DNA of 64,000 nt. Source: Candidatus Bathyarchaeota archaeon. GTDB taxonomy: Archaea; Thermoproteota; Bathyarchaeia; Bathyarchaeales; Bathyarchaeaceae. Each line of letters opens with the position of its first letter. The stretch's first letter is position 1. Location: NCBI GenBank assembly GCA_963697165.1, contig CAVOMX010000022.1:21485-85484 (forward strand), read 5' to 3'. Position numbers and translations under genes: made by a program. The notes under the pieces were generated by a model, which did no database searches, was not told where the DNA came from, and saw only the letters and a list, made by a program, of their open reading frames with translations. Positions 33,806 to 41,344 of this stretch are shown here, piece by piece.

Positions 33806-36235
33806 CTATTTCTTCTTTCTTGCCATCATCTTATCCAGTGTGGGTCGCAGTTTCTCGTTTTCTGCTTTGATCTTCTCTGGTCCCAGCGCTTCCAGCTGCT
33901 CAGTCATCTCCTTCATGATAGCCGCAAACTTTACTCCTTCTGCAGCTGAAACATATTCTACCCTGAAGCGTTCTTTGCTGAGCCCAAGCTTCTCAAAAAT
34001 CTTTGTTAAGGCATCCATTCTGTGCCTTCATCTTGTAGTTGCCTGAAATGTAGTGGCAGTCATACGGTAGGTGACATGCGCCAACCATCACCATTCCTGC
34101 GCCCTGCCTGAACGCTTCTAGCACAAAATCCTTGTCCACCCTGCCCGAGCACATCACACGTATAGCCCTCATGGTGGGCGGATACTCGAAGCGGCTTGTT
34201 CCAGCAAGATCAGCGCCCGCGTAGCTGCACCAGTTACAGAGGAAACCCAGTATCTTGCCCTCAGGGTTATCCTCCAGAGCAGCCTTGATTTGAGCCTGAA
34301 TTTGGTCGTCAGTGAAGTGCATCTGAGTTATCGCATCAGACGGGCACTCGGCAACACAGGTTCCGCAACCATGACACATGGCAGCTGTAACAGTCGCAGC
34401 CTGTCCTTCAACAGCCTTTATTGCGCCATACGGACACTTTGATAACACATATTCCACATTTTGCTGTCACGTTCTTGCATTTGCTTGGGTCAACTATCGG
34501 CTATGATCGGCTCTATCTTCCATGTGGGCTGAGAAAGAACTGTGGCAGCTCGTGCAGCGGCTCCGCTTCCCTGAGACACACTGTAGGGGATATCTTTTGG
34601 TCCTTGGCATGCTCCAGCCAAAAAGATGCCGTCAACAGAAGTGTCCAAAGGCTTCAGTTTCGGGTGGCTCTCCATAAAGAAGCCATCGCCGCCCCTTGTT
34701 ATGCTCAAGATTCTGGAAACCTCGTCTGATCCACTTGCTTGGAATCGCTGCTGTGCTCAAAACCACAAGCTCCGACTCCACCTCTATAGGCTCTCCGAGC
34801 GCCATGTCCTCTGCGCGGATCAGCAGATTCTTGGTTTCGGCAACTTCGGCGATTTGGGAGACTCGTCCCCTGATGAAGTTTACTCCCAACTCGCGGGCTC
34901 TTCGGTAGAATTCCTCGTAGCCCTTGAAGTTGGTGCGCATGTCAATGTAGAATATGTAAACCTCAACATCATCGTGGTAATTCTCTTTAAGCAAAATAGC
35001 ATTCTTCAACGCATACATGCAGCAGAAGCCTGAACAGTACTCGTGCTTGTTCACGTCCCTTGAGCCAACACACTGAATAAACGAAACCGAATGAGGCTTC
35101 TTTCCATCAGAGGCACGTATAACATTGCCTCCGGTTGGTCCCGCAGCCAAAATAAGTCTCTCAAATTCCATGGCAGTGATAACGTTGTCGAATCTGCTGT
35201 AGCCATACTGGCTCTCCTCGTAGGGCTTGTAAACGTCAAAGCCTGTCGAAACAGTGATTGTTCCAACCTCAAGCTCAATCTCTTCGGGCTGCTGATCAAA
35301 ATTGATTGCCTGCCGTGCACCACAAGCGTCAACGCACTTGTAGCATTCGATGCAGTAGTCCCTGTTGATTGTGTAAACTAGTGGAACAGCCTGATCGAAG
35401 GGAACCGAAATCGCCTTCCTGACGCCCATGTTCTCGTCCCACTCGTTAGGATACTCTATGGGACAGGCGTCCCTGCATTCGCCGCAGCCTGTACAGCTCT
35501 CAGCGTTAACGTATCTGGGGTTCTTTCGTGATCTTCACCTTGAAGTTTCCCACGAAACCTTCGACGCTGACAAGGTCGGCGTACGATATTATTTCAATAT
35601 TAGGGTGGCGGGAAACATCCACCATTTTTGGTCCTTCAATACATATGGAGCAGTCCAATGTTGGGAAGGTCTTGTCCAGCGCAGCCATGTGACCGCCTAT
35701 GCTCTCGCCCTTCTCAAGAAGGTAAACTTTGAAGCCCATACCCGCCAAGTCTAACGCAGAGCTTATTCCAGCGATTCCCCCGCCGATTACAAGCGCCTTG
35801 TTTGTGACAGGAACCTCCATCGTCTCAAGACTCTGAAGAAGCCTCGCCTTTGCAACAGCCATCTTCACGATCTCTTTAGCTTTCTCGGTTGCCTCCTTGG
35901 GCGTGCTTTGATGGCACCAAGAAGCAAACTCTCGGATGTTCGCCATCTCAAAAAGATACGGATTCAAGCCAGCATCGGCTACGGTTCTTCGGAAGGTTGG
36001 CTCATGCATTCTGGGCGAACACGCAGCAACAACAACCCTGTTGAGGTTGTGCTCTTTGATGGCTTTCCTGATTTCCTCCTGTCCCGGGGTCAGCGCAGGT
36101 GTAGCGGTTGTCCATGGCTATCACCACATTGGGCAGTGTCCGGGCGTAATCTGTTACTTCTTTGACGTCAACTGTGCCTGCGATGTTAAGTCCGCAGTGG
36201 CAAACGAATACTCCTACTCGTGGTTCCTCAGACAT
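33806..36235 (-). pseudogene. hdrA: Heterodisulfide reductase HdrA fused to C-terminal MvhD, broken by six +1 indels
   Basis: [47 protein letters not shown], then Mvh[29 protein letters not shown] across successive frames; no in-frame stops after correction. Confidence 0.92.
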
Positions 36236-37159
36236 TGTTCTCCAGCTCCTCTGGGGGCAATCTTTTCATGATGACTTTCTTGAGCTTCTCTGCGTTCTTG
36301 TTTTGCATCTCCTTTATCACAGCGTTGGTGGAAGCAAGTTTTTCGAGAGCTTTGTTCCATGCTCCAGAACGAACCTCAGTGTGACGTATGCGCGTCCTGT
36401 TAAGCTCTAGGGCTCCTTCCTCTGGACAGGCAATCTTGCAGGCGCCACAGTAGACGCAATGGGAATCGTTAACCTGCACTTTTCCGTCAGAGAGATACAG
36501 GACACCTGGAATCGGACAGACATCAACGCAGTCGTGGCAGCCTTCAGGACATTTTTCGCTGTTAACTCTGAGGCTTCCATAGAACATTTTTTCCACATGA
36601 ATTGCGCCGTCTGGAAACTTTGTTTCACATAGACGACAGCACGGACACGATTCCTTGTCTATCTCAACTTTGACCTTGAGATTTTCTTCTTTGATTTGGA
36701 GGTTATATCTGCAACTTCTTTTCCATCTGGAGTGCAAACGCTTACCTTAATGTGGTCTAAGGGGCAGGCTTCCTCAATTTCTAGACATTCCAAACCGCAT
36801 TTGGTTTCGTCAACCTTAATCTCCCGTATGAGCTGGGGAAAACTTTCGGTTTCAACTACCGGAATAACATGTTCTCCGTTAACTTTCATGTTCAAGGCTC
36901 CGAAGGGGCAAATTGCTTCGCACATTCCACAGTAGTGACATTTTTCTTCGCTGATGGTTACTGTGGGAGGCTTCGCTTTTTCTCCCTCTGCCTTTAGGGT
37001 TCTTGTAACTTGTATGGCTTCTCGAGGGCAGATTTCCATGCAGACCCCGCAGCCCATACACTTGTTCTTGTCTAAAGTAAGCGAATAGTGTCTGGCGTGC
37101 ATCACCATCTCTATGACAAGTTCGTTTTCGTTTTCGGTTTTGAGCAGTTTTATGGGCGT
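36228..37159 (-). pseudogene. Polyferredoxin (FwdF/MvhB-like), frameshift ~36690, apparent ACG start
   Basis: Multiple CxxCxxCxxxCP motifs in two overlapping ORFs; frame extends upstream to ACG-CCC-ATA at 37159 behind GGGGGT. Confidence 0.8.
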
Positions 37160-37245: not shown

Positions 37246-37381
37246 ATCTTATTGATTGATTATCATGAGACTCCAAGAAACAAACATGACCAAGCTAGAA
37301 TTGTGCGAAAACCAAACTCTATGACTTTTTGGTAGTGTTTAAAAATGTCGATTCTCAACATCTCTCTTGAGGAGATCTTCG

Positions 37382-38428
37382 ATGGAGCGTATAACTATGG
37401 CTCATGGAGCCGGCGGAACCGTTATGGGCGATCTTATAAAAAACCATGTTTTGAAGCATCTTGGCGGAAGCAGCGCTGAGGTTCCGCTGGAAGCACTAGA
37501 TGATTCTGCGGTGGTAGATAACATAGTTTTGAAGTCGGATTCTCATGCTGTAAAGCCCCTCTTCTTTCCGGGCGGGGACATTGGACGGTTGGCTGTCGCG
37601 GGCACAGTTAACGATATTGCGATGATCGGCGCTGAGCCGTTGGCTCTTACCTGTGGTATGGTGCTGGAGGAAGGGCTTCTAATAGCAGATTTGGATCGTA
37701 TCTTGGAGAGCATGGAGCAAGCATGCAAAGAGGCTGGCGTGTATGTTGTTACTGGGGATACTAAGGTTATTGAGAAGAGCGGTTTTGGAGGCTGCATCAT
37801 CAATACTTCGGGAATAGGGAAACGGGGTGAGGCGCTGGAAACTAACATCCGTGAGGTTAGGAAGCACCGTCGATTCGATTCGCGTTGGGTCCTAGACTCT
37901 AACCTGCGAGAGGGCGACAAGCTGATAGTTTCAGGCACAGTTGGAGACCACGGAATAACCATTTTGTCGGCTCAGGAGGGCTACAATTTTGGAAGCAACA
38001 TCAAATCTGATGTGGCGCCCCTGAACAAAGTAGTCAAGAAGTTGCTTTTGGTTGGCGGAATCGTTGCCATGAAGGATCCGACTCGGGGTGGCTTGTCTAA
38101 CTCGTTGAATGAGTGGAGTACAAAGTCGAATGTTGGTTTGATGGTGCAGGAGTCGAAAGTGCCTGTGAGGGGTGACGTGAGGGCTGCCTGTGAAATGCTT
38201 GGTTTAGACCCCATGGAGATTGGAAACGAGGGCAAAGTGCTCATTGGCGTTGTGGCGCAGAAGGCTGAAGAAGTTTTGGCGGCACTAAAAGCGACTAAAG
38301 AAGGCAAGGATGCCCAGATAATCGGAGAAGCAACAGGCGACTTCAGCGAGGTTGTTATTGAAACTGTTGTGGGCGGAAAACGAATCATGTCTCCTCCAAT
38401 CGGAGACCCAATCCCAAGAATCTGCTAA
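37382..38428 (+). CDS. hypE: Hydrogenase maturation protein HypE
   Basis: HGAGG, DSHAVKPLFFPGGDIG, GTVND, DPTRGG, C-terminal PRIC. Confidence 0.97.
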   Translation: MERITMAHGAGGTVMGDLIKNHVLKHLGGSSAEVPLEALDDSAVVDNIVLKSDSHAVKPLFFPGGDIGRLAVAGTVNDIAMIGAEPLALTCGMVLEEGLLIADLDRILESMEQACKEAGVYVVTGDTKVIEKSGFGGCIINTSGIGKRGEALETNIREVRKHRRFDSRWVLDSNLREGDKLIVSGTVGDHGITILSAQEGYNFGSNIKSDVAPLNKVVKKLLLVGGIVAMKDPTRGGLSNSLNEWSTKSNVGLMVQESKVPVRGDVRAACEMLGLDPMEIGNEGKVLIGVVAQKAEEVLAALKATKEGKDAQIIGEATGDFSEVVIETVVGGKRIMSPPIGDPIPRIC

Positions 38429-38527
38429 CCGACATCATCTGATGGCGGCTAAGATTTGGTTCAAATCCACAAATGATTTCTTGTTTGTTTTCTTTCGGTT
38501 TTTATACAAGTTTACCTTCAATGGGTC

Positions 38528-38716
38528 ATGGATGTGACATTCAAGATGGCCGGTGAATTTGAGATGCGGATTGGATTACTAAATTTTGATGGTGACACGG
38601 CAGCTAAGATTATGCAGTTGATTACCGAAGCAGGTAAACAGTTTCCTTGTTTAAAATGTCCTTCGAAGAGTGAATGTGAAAACTTTAAGTGGTTTCTGAA
38701 TTGGTTTGGGAAATAA
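38528..38716 (+). CDS. Small hypothetical protein with CxxC-x5-C motif
   Basis: FPCLKCPSKSECENFKWF; start may be ATG at 38546. Confidence 0.6.
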   Translation: MDVTFKMAGEFEMRIGLLNFDGDTAAKIMQLITEAGKQFPCLKCPSKSECENFKWFLNWFGK

Positions 38717-38907
38717 ACTCATCCCATCCATCACTTGCATCGTTATTATAAACACCTTACTTTGTGTTTCATGTGCCCTGTTGTCTGCTGAGTCATGGAA
38801 AAGCCCCAGTTTTTAGACAAAAATATGTCAAAAAAGTTGGTCTCATCTCAGTTACATGATGTTCATGCTTTCGACAAACTATATCTTCCACTGTATCTAA
38901 ATGATAT

Positions 38908-39147
38908 ATTCCCCGAGTTGGGGAGCACGCTCGGGTATTGCATCGAAGCAATTGAGCATACGGGTCAAAACGGCTGAAGGCTGGTATGCGCCAAAGACTC
39001 TGCTTCGAAGGGCTGGTCAATACCTAAAGTGCAATGCGTATAGGCATCGAGTGCGCCAACCAAAAAGGCTGAACGAGACGCGCACGACAAAAACGATGTC
39101 TAACCGGGCCTAACATGCACCAAGGGCTTAGACTCAACTCGGGGAAT
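38908..39147 (+). ncRNA. Candidate structured ncRNA of unknown family (~240 nt, closing stem plus two long arms)
   Basis: 13-bp terminal pairing ATTCCCCGAGTTG/CAACTCGGGGAAT and several nested internal helices; G-U pairs and A-rich loops favour the + strand. Confidence 0.65.
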
Positions 39148-39219
39148 TCTATTTTCTGCAAATTTTTGGTTAACTTTGTTTGGCTGAAGATGTTTTTTCT
39201 TAACTCGTAATATGCTGTT

Positions 39220-39800
39220 TTATATTATGAAATTCCAGCCTGAGTTGTGGCCGTGCCAGAAGAATTCGTGGAGTTCTCCGAGGCTTCTGAAGCCAAAATT
39301 GTTTTTGATCGATTTGCATAGCTCATTAAAGTCGACGTAGTGGTCGGCTGTCTTCACGTTCAGTTCGACAATTTGCCAGTCAACTACATGCGTCAGAAAG
39401 TCTTCTATTCCCTTCACAACATTCTCATGATAGATGGTGTACTCGTCATTGTTTACTGCAGCAAGCAGCTGGGAGGCAATACAGGGATCAAAACCCTCAA
39501 TGTCAAGCACATTCTGTAATCTTTCTTTGAAAGGCCGCACTCCAAGGAACAGGTCAAAAAGCTTCAGTTTTACTTCGTTAAAGTCGTTTCCTGTTACTAT
39601 CCTGTCAGCGGTTTGTTTGGAAACGCTTTTTGGCAGAAACAAGTTACTTAATAGCAATGCTTTGAATTCATCAGCGGTTATGTTCGTCAACTCCACGGTT
39701 AATTTTGGTTTCAGTTTTGCGGATCGGATATCATGCCAGATAACGTCGGGGTAATGGTATCCGCCATTCTGAACCGTTCAAGAACCTCATTAACATTCAT
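39220..39800 (-). CDS. Hypothetical protein, probable frameshift near 5' end (~39777)
   Basis: 158-aa ORF whose frame extends upstream (VQNGGYHYPDVIWHDIRS...) to within a few nt of MNVNEVLE at 39800, which follows GAGGA. Confidence 0.6.
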
Positions 39801-39869
39801 GGTATTTCCTCTTCAAGAACAGTCAACAAACAATAATTAACTGTTCTTCCAGCAGATATAAGCCTTAGT

Positions 39870-40964
39870 TTACCGTAGCTTAGTTACTTTATGTTTTGCC
39901 CAGATTCTACATGTGCCCTCATTCGAAACCATACACGCGCCTTTCGGAGCCTCTGGAACACAACTTGTCAAGTAGCTGGGGCACTCAGGCGGCTTAATCT
40001 TCCCAATCATAACCAGATGGCATAGACAGCCCTTCAAAATGTCTCTAGAATCTTCTATATGCAGATCATACTTTTTGCGTGCATCATACGCAACAAACTC
40101 CTTCTTTAGTACCAACGCCGACTTTGGAAGCTTTCCAAGTCCCCGCCACCTGCCATCCGCAACATCAAACACCTGCTCCACCAACTGTTGAGCCTTAACG
40201 TTGCCTTCCCACGTAACAACACGTTTATACTCATTCTCAAGCCTCGCCACGCCCTCCTTCACCTGCTGCAGTAGCATGTCGATGGCAAAAAGAACATCCA
40301 AAGGCTCAAAACCCGCAACCACCGTTGGCATCCCATACGCTTTCGGAAACACCTCATAGGGCTTCATTCCAGTAATCGTCGAAACATGACCCGCCGCAAT
40401 AAAGCCGTCAATATGCAAATCTCCAATACCCAAAAGCAGCTCCATCGCAGGAGGAATCAGCCTATGAGAAACAAGAAAACTAAAATTTTCTGGAGGCTTA
40501 CCTAAAACTTCGATGGCAGTTGTCGGAGACGTAGTTTCAAACCCAACAGCAAAAAACACAAACTCTTTGTCAGGATTCTTTTGTGCTATCTGAATGGCGT
40601 CTCGTAAACTGTAAACTATTCGCACATCTCCCCCCGACGCTTTAGTTTCTTGAAGAGACGTTTCTGAACCCGGAACACGAATAAGGTCGCCGAAAGTGGT
40701 GACGGTTACACCCTTTTTTGCTAGGGCTATTGCTTCGTCAATGTCTGATGCTGGAAGAATACAAACTGGGCATCCTGGACCAGCAATAACATCCACGTTG
40801 TATGGAAGAATAGAACGAAGCCCAAAATGGGTTATAGTCCACTCGTGGGTTCCACAGACGTGACAAAACTTTGTTGTGTAGTCAGGAGCAATTTTTTTTA
40901 TGTGCTCTGCAACCTTTTTTGCCAAAACGGGGTCTCTGAAGTTGTCCGTGTTTGCTGTTTTCAC
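39870..40964 (-). CDS. hypD: Hydrogenase maturation protein HypD
   Basis: CGTHE, GPGCPVC, GFETT, GHVS, GFEP, GACMVSNEGTC; GTG start overlaps hypA stop. Confidence 0.97.
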   Translation of the reverse strand: MKTANTDNFRDPVLAKKVAEHIKKIAPDYTTKFCHVCGTHEWTITHFGLRSILPYNVDVIAGPGCPVCILPASDIDEAIALAKKGVTVTTFGDLIRVPGSETSLQETKASGGDVRIVYSLRDAIQIAQKNPDKEFVFFAVGFETTSPTTAIEVLGKPPENFSFLVSHRLIPPAMELLLGIGDLHIDGFIAAGHVSTITGMKPYEVFPKAYGMPTVVAGFEPLDVLFAIDMLLQQVKEGVARLENEYKRVVTWEGNVKAQQLVEQVFDVADGRWRGLGKLPKSALVLKKEFVAYDARKKYDLHIEDSRDILKGCLCHLVMIGKIKPPECPSYLTSCVPEAPKGACMVSNEGTCRIWAKHKVTKLR

Positions 40965-41344
40965 TTCTCTTTCCCTTTGACCATTTTTATGCTCTTTATT
41001 GTGCATTCTTTGCCTTCAACAATTTTTGCTGTTTTTTTGCATTTGGGGCATTGAAGGGTTGGAATTGGTACATGATACGCTGGGTCATCTTCGAATGGTA
41101 TTGCTCCTCTGTAGCCGCAGCTGCCACATTCTATGACGCCGTCTTTTTCTTCGATGAAAAGCTTTGAGCCTTTCATGATTGTGTCCTCCGCCAATATTTT
41201 GTATGCGAAACGAACCTGATCGACACCCAGATACGTCATTTTGCCTATAACAACATAAACTTCCGTGACCTTTTTTGCGTCATGCCTTTTTGCTTCTTCT
41301 AAAACGTTTTCGATGATTTGTGTGGTCATGGAAAGCTCATGCAC
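40961..41344 (-). CDS. hypA: Nickel metallochaperone HypA
   Basis: MHE N-terminus, two CxxC. Confidence 0.96.
   Translation of the reverse strand: MHELSMTTQIIENVLEEAKRHDAKKVTEVYVVIGKMTYLGVDQVRFAYKILAEDTIMKGSKLFIEEKDGVIECGSCGYRGAIPFEDDPAYHVPIPTLQCPKCKKTAKIVEGKECTIKSIKMVKGKEK

Follow-up and report, generated by a model that had tools for sequence, protein, structure and literature searches.

A probable dedicated gene for a circular non-coding RNA in Bathyarchaeota, with a candidate nuclease partner

Introduction

What is the structured element at positions 38908..39147 (+ strand) of the window, the 64,000-nt stretch of Candidatus Bathyarchaeota DNA analyzed here, and what does it produce? The archaeal group concerned is among the most abundant in sediment. 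The element is flanked upstream by hypE (37367..38428, + strand, named from its translation), which lies outside it, and downstream by a hypothetical ORF (39220..39696, − strand) that has no Pfam family; this ORF is convergent, so no same-strand gene is read downstream of the RNA. A first-pass annotation had proposed a stand-alone two-module non-coding RNA of no known family. A scan of positions 38000-40000 in genomic order gave no Rfam match to the element at E ≤ 10, and the structure of its homologs and the RNA-library contigs described below bear that proposal out. The BHB motif, circularization and a linked nuclease gene were absent from the annotation.

Structure of the element

The perfect 13-bp closing stem that had been recognized at 38908-20/39135-47 is present, and lengthens to 15 bp with one G-U pair. 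A folding check suggested by the annotation gave −88.6 kcal/mol for the + strand, with a z-score of −4.05 and none of 200 shuffled sequences equally stable. The minus strand of the element is also stable (z −4.94), so the strand is not given by folding alone. A suggested check for covariation was likewise positive: on 27 homologs, 98% of the cells of the Y-shaped structure are paired and 22 of 67 pairs carry two-sided changes, a level reached in 0 of 500 shuffles, and slid controls were 27-43% paired.

The two arms and the duplicated motifs reported earlier are real. Arm module 1 (38933..39025, + strand) consists of a stem, a hinge loop, a second stem and a 12-nt apical loop; arm module 2 (39029..39120, + strand) is homologous to it, and the two can be aligned column for column. 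Pairing of the apical loop with a bulge at the arm base gives each arm a pseudoknot, 38971-74 with 39012-15 in arm 1 and 39066-69 with 39108-11 in arm 2. In a profile alignment of 148 distinct arms, the four pseudoknot pairs are kept in 134/140, 146/146, 147/147 and 146/147 arms, and two of these pairs rank 9th and 11th by corrected mutual information among column pairs. From the matched helix lengths, we infer that loop and bulge pair within one molecule. The apical loops are conserved and pseudoknot-paired, and the variable positions are those of the covarying stems. The CGGC/GCTG pairing, listed in the annotation with the stems of arm 1, is a pseudoknot between the loop CGGC and the distal GCTG (39012-15), and it has its equivalent in arm 2. 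A proposed long-range GGGTC/GACTC pairing loses to a nested stem (two-sided changes 0 versus 10), and the AAG-A-CTCT pairing suggested alongside it falls outside the set of helices for which 88% of rows or more are paired.

The flanks have the features of a transcription unit. A BRE/TATA-like promoter box at 38872..38885 (+ strand) is kept even where the genes around the copies are unrelated. In 94 of 135 family members, the distance from the handle to the first upstream TATA-like match is 39-45 nt, and in the window copy it is 43 nt. As judged from sequence and pair counts, the 5' exon (38908..38928, + strand) comprises the outer stem strand, the central BHB helix strand (38923-26) and the first two bulge bases. 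The 3' exon (39132..39165, + strand) comprises the outer stem strand to 39147 and a U-rich tail, and the T-rich consensus downstream of the stem suggests that this tail, to 39165, is a probable terminator. When 24 copies are compared with the window copy, the RNA itself has a mean identity of 0.86; the preceding 70 bases have 0.68, and the sequence further downstream has 0.49.

Probable excision and circularization

At the base of the element, a helix (38923-26/39126-29) is flanked by bulges at 38927-29 and 39130-32, in agreement with the definition of a BHB as a 4-bp helix with two opposite 3-nt bulges. The motif is intact on the + strand only. Its outer helix is 15 bp long; its inner helix is C-G plus U-G in the window copy and has U-A in 33 of 47 diverse members. 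The strict hBHBh' form has flanking helices of at least two Watson-Crick pairs, and of the two pairs in the present inner helix one is Watson-Crick and the other G-U; according to the accessible text of one source, TACK-type EndA is relaxed as to its BHB substrate (PMC7714728). The BHB is perfect in 134 of 136 distinct members, which were picked by a motif that overlaps it.

The position at which EndA cuts within a BHB is in part established knowledge. In the accessible text of the sources used, the BHB definition and EndA geometry are those of PMC7714728, and the cut position was derived from anticodon geometry (PMC4090602). The 5' half of the motif (38923..38929, + strand) would thereby be cut between 38928 and 38929, and the 3' half (39126..39132, + strand) between 39131 and 39132. 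Evidence that this takes place came from assembled contigs of four among 24 listed RNA-library runs, mapped on 37300-41100. These contigs are pooled over relatives, strandless, and come without raw reads or a DNA control run; they therefore show presence, not level or strand. The element was covered by contigs in 4/4 runs; in the same runs the hypE and hypD bins were empty and the depth of the convergent ORF was below 2, values that cannot rank expression. A back-joint leaving from 39131 and landing on 38929, with no ambiguous bases, was found in runs X1 (depth 54), X2 (1135) and X22 (15.5). In run X6, from a fourth study, relatives showed this seam too, in the form of one joint plus several loose ends. 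One X1 contig across the seam has two differences to the own genome over 232 nt. In both 3-nt bulges the joint lies between the second and third bases, which is the EndA geometry, and it corresponds to a ligated circle; the mature RNA is accordingly a circle of 203 nt (38929..39131, + strand).

The seam itself has a recurrent form. By computation, the ligated seam of the window copy could fold into a 4-bp stem capped by a UUAG tetraloop with a C-G closing pair. The seam loops of the 136 members are UUAG (112), UUUG (12), UUCG (8), UCAG (3) and one other, and the seam stem has at least 3 bp in 135 of 136. The letters of the handle, and not merely its shape, may be kept because the seam closes as a tetraloop. 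A motif-free filter that combined the BHB, a TATA-like box, a seam tetraloop and folding returned three sites in the 2-Mb genome, two of which are family members.

The genome encodes two EndA genes, and no Rnl3-type ligase was found in its 81% complete assembly. The rtcB gene (G000:C12:146531-147843) is in three pieces, with two frameshifts, in that assembly, and RtcB gives one uninterrupted full-length match in 23 of 24 relatives; because other genes of the window are also split, the rtcB split is probably an assembly error. We infer that EndA performs the cleavage and RtcB the ligation. There is no sign of coding in the circles, whose lengths fall in all three frames and keep no ORF length. 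Taken together, these data make it very probable that the locus is a gene whose dedicated product is a circular non-coding RNA.

A wider RNA family

A genome-wide search found one full copy of the element in the own genome. Full-length copies are present in 22 of 24 genomes of the same genus and in 2 of 35 other genomes of the family. A two-arm model extends this range to 29/60 family, 77/151 order and 27/151 class genomes, and a base-only model matches 40/151 class genomes and 23/151 phylum genomes, 12 of the 23 being outside the class. The constant part of the family is the BHB handle, or base; the cargo differs. The 136 distinct members include 47 with one arm, 49 with two, one with three (L131, at G083:C12, with a predicted circle of 289 nt) and 39 that are armless, with long rods of several types. 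One such rod paralog lies in the own genome at G000:C8:17270-17439 (L062), with the same BHB handle, a G-U-rich rod of ~60 bp and a predicted circle of 137 nt; in relatives it is convergent to an acetyltransferase-like gene. The location of the window copy in the hyp cluster is incidental to this genus.

In a viral scan that covered the GGAG-starting form of the handle, two patterns yielded 99 loci, two of them weak (E 0.038) and none convincing. In Rfam, the paralog loci gave only two chance snoRNA matches, both off the element. No description of the RNA family was found in the main texts of the largely open-access literature searched; supplementary circRNA tables could list such circles.

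Some members have a distinctive setting. One-arm copies L032, L104, L163, L166, L165, L168, L162, L161 and L194-L196 lie directly 5' of dodecin, PRC-barrel, Hsp20, cold-shock, PfpI or CDC48 genes on the same strand, and several of them carry a motif resembling a ribosome-binding site; this arrangement suggests a stress-linked promoter or a spliced leader at those copies. Others (L106, L157, L117, L055) lie beside integrase, primase-domain or terminase-like genes, the last judged by eye, hinting at carriage on integrated elements.

A linked PD-(D/E)XK-fold gene

Across families, the RNA lies head-to-head with a gene of ~215 aa, at a distance of about 70-400 nt. This gene is present in 37 of 40 RNA-positive class genomes versus 82 of 151 class genomes overall, the three RNA-positive genomes that lack it being 85-90% complete; conversely, the RNA occurs in only 3 of 69 nuclease-negative class genomes. 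The pair is adjacent and head-to-head in 25 of the 37 co-occurring genomes, is represented by a contig-end fragment in one and is apart in 11. In the phylum sample, the gene is found in 23/23 RNA-positive genomes versus 60/151 overall, and the head-to-head arrangement holds in 12/12 outside the class. Starting from the protein, the two-arm model matches 46 of the best 80 of 571 nuclease loci. The protein neighbors of the gene, judged by eye in 63 loci, vary widely, and a DNA ligase is a steady neighbor within two families.

The protein family comprises 250 representatives at 50% identity. It has no Pfam family (0/7 sequences) and no PADLOC family, carries only the name "hypothetical", and had no PDB sequence match under E 0.15; a weak YraN-type NCBIfam match was seen in 2 of 19 sequences (best E 0.0022), and a low-score lead from Atlas was PDDEXK_14. 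A structural model with a pLDDT of 92.8 had PD-(D/E)XK folds as its top matches, among them 3dnx (Z 9.5, rmsd 2.4, 103 aligned) and the XisH-type protein 2okf (Z 9.2, rmsd 3.0, 112 aligned). Residues E57, D83, E96 and E98 are invariant in 19 sequences, and the usual lysine is replaced. On this model, the linked gene product is a nuclease-like protein of predicted PD-(D/E)XK fold. EndA, which may nevertheless be akin, was absent from the fold matches, and viral contigs contained no relative of the protein.

The own genome is one of those in which the pair is apart. Its nuclease gene (C9:99336-99956) lies on another contig with no adjoining RNA, and the same is true across the genus. In a tree of 59 sequences, whose backbone is poorly resolved and three of whose long branches are unreliable, this nuclease groups with a rod-type-linked nuclease (98/94), outside a supported clade to which 17 of 18 arm-linked nucleases belong. 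The rod paralog at C8:17270-17439 may therefore be its cognate RNA, and the two-arm copy of the window may act in trans or be an orphan.

Linkage is asymmetric. No R3 model match was found in 45 of the 82 nuclease-positive class genomes. Of these 45, 32 belong to family f24, two have diverged handles detected by script (L328, L330) and one has a lone arm; f37, f51 and f46 are further nuclease-positive, RNA-negative lineages. In 20 nuclease loci with no R3 match, no convincing BHB RNA lay within 10 kb. Since the nuclease often stands without a detectable RNA, the enzyme does not appear to need it, which argues against an obligate pair. As far as genome content tells, the RNA nearly always comes with the enzyme and not the reverse, in a sample whose related genomes are not independent.

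Additional evidence for the association came from a different RNA. In families f49 (6/7 loci) and f59 (2/3), a multi-hairpin RNA unrelated in sequence lies by the nuclease gene, tail-to-tail with it (L370:2191-2413, − strand; L372-L376, L385 and L386). This RNA carries a separate TATA-like box, together with a BHB and a seam of GAAA; it gives no Rfam match and is predicted to form circles of 186 and 157 nt. That the nuclease pairs with at least two unrelated RNA sequence families is part of a broader claim, namely that this archaeal phylum has a class of purpose-built circular RNA genes in which a BHB handle routes exchangeable cargo via the tRNA-splicing machinery, the seam is sealed by a tetraloop, and the circle is the controlling ligand of a dedicated PD-(D/E)XK nuclease. 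We regard this joint claim as possible, at slightly below an even chance.

Relation to known RNA classes and systems

Several established classes were considered for the element. A tRNA or rRNA intron would need a host, and there is no tRNA at the site and no Rfam match in 38000-40000. SRP RNA and RNase P RNA gave no match in genomic order, and the genuine genes lie at C12 and C9. A C/D or H/ACA guide is disfavored by the Rfam result, in which the two off-element snoRNA matches were the sole hits, and by variable positions that are paired. What could be read as a K-turn at the element base is better explained as the BHB. A riboswitch or cis-regulatory leader does not suit a locus whose next gene is convergent, here and at most loci, with a minority of one-arm copies preceding genes. 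The suggested analogy with IS110 bridge RNAs or other dual guides did not hold up, given loops that are conserved and pseudoknotted, variable positions in the stems, and no IS110 recombinase among the 46 proteins scanned for Pfam, 37 of them other neighbors of RNA copies. M-box, yybP-ykoY, c-di-GMP-I, hammerhead, RNase P, Y RNA, T-box and attC were unsupported in the Rfam scans.

The closest precedents are other archaeal circles. Those excised at a BHB include tRNA introns (among them the tRNA-Trp C/D sRNA), circular pre-rRNA and the HVO_1309 leader intron, as given in the accessible parts of the reports (PMC7714728, PMC12558985, PMC12918454). On those accounts, they share the splice motif, the cut positions and the presumed enzymes with the window RNA; in contrast, they leave a host tRNA, rRNA or mRNA, whereas the exons here are only a stem of ~20 nt, and making the circle appears to be what the gene is for. 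The permuted circular SRP RNA of Thermoproteus comes nearer, being described in the text available as the product of the same kind of stand-alone gene, with a TATA box, a leader/trailer BHB, an EndA cut and ligation, and a seam that restores a hairpin loop (Plagens et al. 2015, PMC4731332). That circle, on the same account, is a permuted member of a known family (PMC4731332), whereas the RNA described here belongs to no Rfam family, coexists with a normal SRP RNA elsewhere in the genome, and occurs in several classes with exchangeable cargo. As far as the accessible sources go, known BHB circles are thus by-products or one permuted housekeeping RNA, and the present family would be a widespread gene family that seems to exist only for making a circle.

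Two systems in which an RNA accompanies a nuclease offer looser parallels. In type III toxin-antitoxin systems the RNA lies upstream of the toxin in one operon, and the toxin is of ToxN, CptN or TenpN type. The likeness to these systems (ToxIN, CptIN, TenpIN), as far as the accessible descriptions go, is that repeated pseudoknotted modules stand beside a nuclease gene and that the RNA is proposed to bind the enzyme; repeated pseudoknot units are found in part of the present family, with 47 one-arm, 49 two-arm and one three-arm members of 136 against 39 armless ones. The differences are that the genes are divergent here, not in one operon, that the protein has a predicted PD-(D/E)XK fold and no Pfam or PADLOC family, that the RNA would be circularized by EndA and not cut into monomers, and that the protein also occurs without the RNA. 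Two defining features fail, and the comparison is an analogy only. Y RNAs, associated with Ro60, have a conserved basal handle, variable cargo loops and a link to nuclease and RNA repair. The present family resembles them in having a handle, variable cargo and linkage to a nuclease-like gene, but the handle here is a splice motif, no Rfam Y RNA match was obtained, and no Ro60/TROVE gene was found in the 81% complete genome.

Proposed mechanism and alternatives

A precursor of ~250 nt would be transcribed from its own TATA promoter, and its ends, as sequence and conservation show, fold into the BHB. EndA would make its cuts between the second and third bases of the bulges and RtcB would join the ends of the inner piece, giving the seam seen in the contigs, which by computation could refold into a tetraloop hairpin and leave an endless, stable RNA. 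Each arm would bend at its hinge, so that the apical loop pairs with the basal bulge, a pairing shown by covariation. The circle would then most likely serve as an RNA that binds the linked PD-(D/E)XK-fold nuclease and holds it, inhibits it or tunes it, with the number of arms setting the count of sites offered, a proposal drawn from gene linkage alone. In an alternative mode, the nuclease would open or recycle the circle. A functional partnership of the circle with the nuclease family, as ligand or regulator, is moderately probable on these grounds. Inhibition would be the likeliest mode of action, and inhibition in the manner of an RNA antitoxin is a tentative suggestion, on balance doubtful.

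The circle might instead be real but act independently of the nuclease. It could, for instance, serve under stress as a stable store or sponge for a different RNA-binding protein, and the two genes would merely share a divergent, co-regulated promoter. We consider this unlikely, while granting it a substantial share of credence: the pair is apart in 11 of 37 co-occurring class genomes, this genus included; many lineages have the nuclease and no detectable RNA; arms give way to unrelated rods as cargo; and, in this genus, additional copies stand in front of dodecin, cold-shock, PfpI, Hsp20 and PRC-barrel genes. However, adjacency lasts across classes while protein neighbors change, the RNA is scarce in nuclease-negative genomes, and the unrelated BHB RNA of f49 and f59, lying tail-to-tail with the same gene, shares no promoter with it. 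A related proposal would make the RNA a spliced 5' leader, from which EndA removes an intron to regulate the downstream gene and the circle is a by-product, by analogy with the Haloferax HVO_1309 leader intron. The convergent orientation of the next gene in the window and at most loci, and an excised piece that holds arms with covarying tertiary structure, make this improbable, even though a gene follows the end of some one-arm copies closely, at 24-35 nt in the case of dodecin, PRC-barrel or Hsp20 and at 40-81 nt in the case of CDC48 (family f23).

Selfish or mobile origins were also weighed, as the annotation had offered a MITE, and a DNA copy of a viroid-like circle would be a further form of this idea. 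Copies do move between contexts (three two-arm copies in G019; five matches of the R2 model in G009), and a few stand beside integrase or primase genes. A MITE nevertheless fails on copy number and target-site duplication, with a single full copy in the own genome and direct repeats of at most 1 nt flanking 27/27 copies; an external promoter travels with the element, synteny is long kept, and neither a convincing member among the 99 viral pattern matches nor a ribozyme family match was found. We give this reading very little weight. It is similarly hard to credit that the RNA is linear and structured and that the back-joint is an artefact of reverse transcription or assembly at a strong stem. 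The data consist of assembled contigs, with no raw reads or DNA control, and a few contigs run past 39131 into the 3' exon, which speaks for a linear RNA; against it, the identical seam appears in four studies and several strains and uses both canonical cut sites, and the BHB geometry is kept with compensatory changes in the outer stem.

A dedicated circular RNA gene with a nuclease partner would matter in several ways. The RNA is readily recovered from sediment and aquatic RNA libraries. The machinery for making circles is known, and the RNA family, its modular design and its partner are not in Rfam or the literature searched. The family is a probable new substrate class for EndA/RtcB; it supplies a strongly covarying pseudoknot module that is new, as well as a natural circularization cassette whose seam seals itself, and it offers a starting point for tests on a conserved archaeal nuclease family that lacks annotation. 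If the partnership is true, a nuclease would be coupled to the splicing and ligation capacity of the cell.

Additional observations

Many family members, and the nuclease of L202, have a near-palindromic TTTGTGCAAA-like motif just 5' of the TATA box, in the divergent promoter region; it is a possible operator or promoter element. In the window, a 62-aa ORF with a CxxC motif and no Pfam family lies between hypE and the RNA (38528-38716). Frameshifts split heterodisulfide-reductase-like genes and the convergent hypothetical ORF (window 33806-37108 and 39220-39801); the latter is about 193 aa in relatives, and the splits are consistent with assembly indel errors. A GC-rich stretch elsewhere in this genome of ~41% GC (G000:C9:106700-118000) gave many false BHB-like matches and is possibly foreign DNA.
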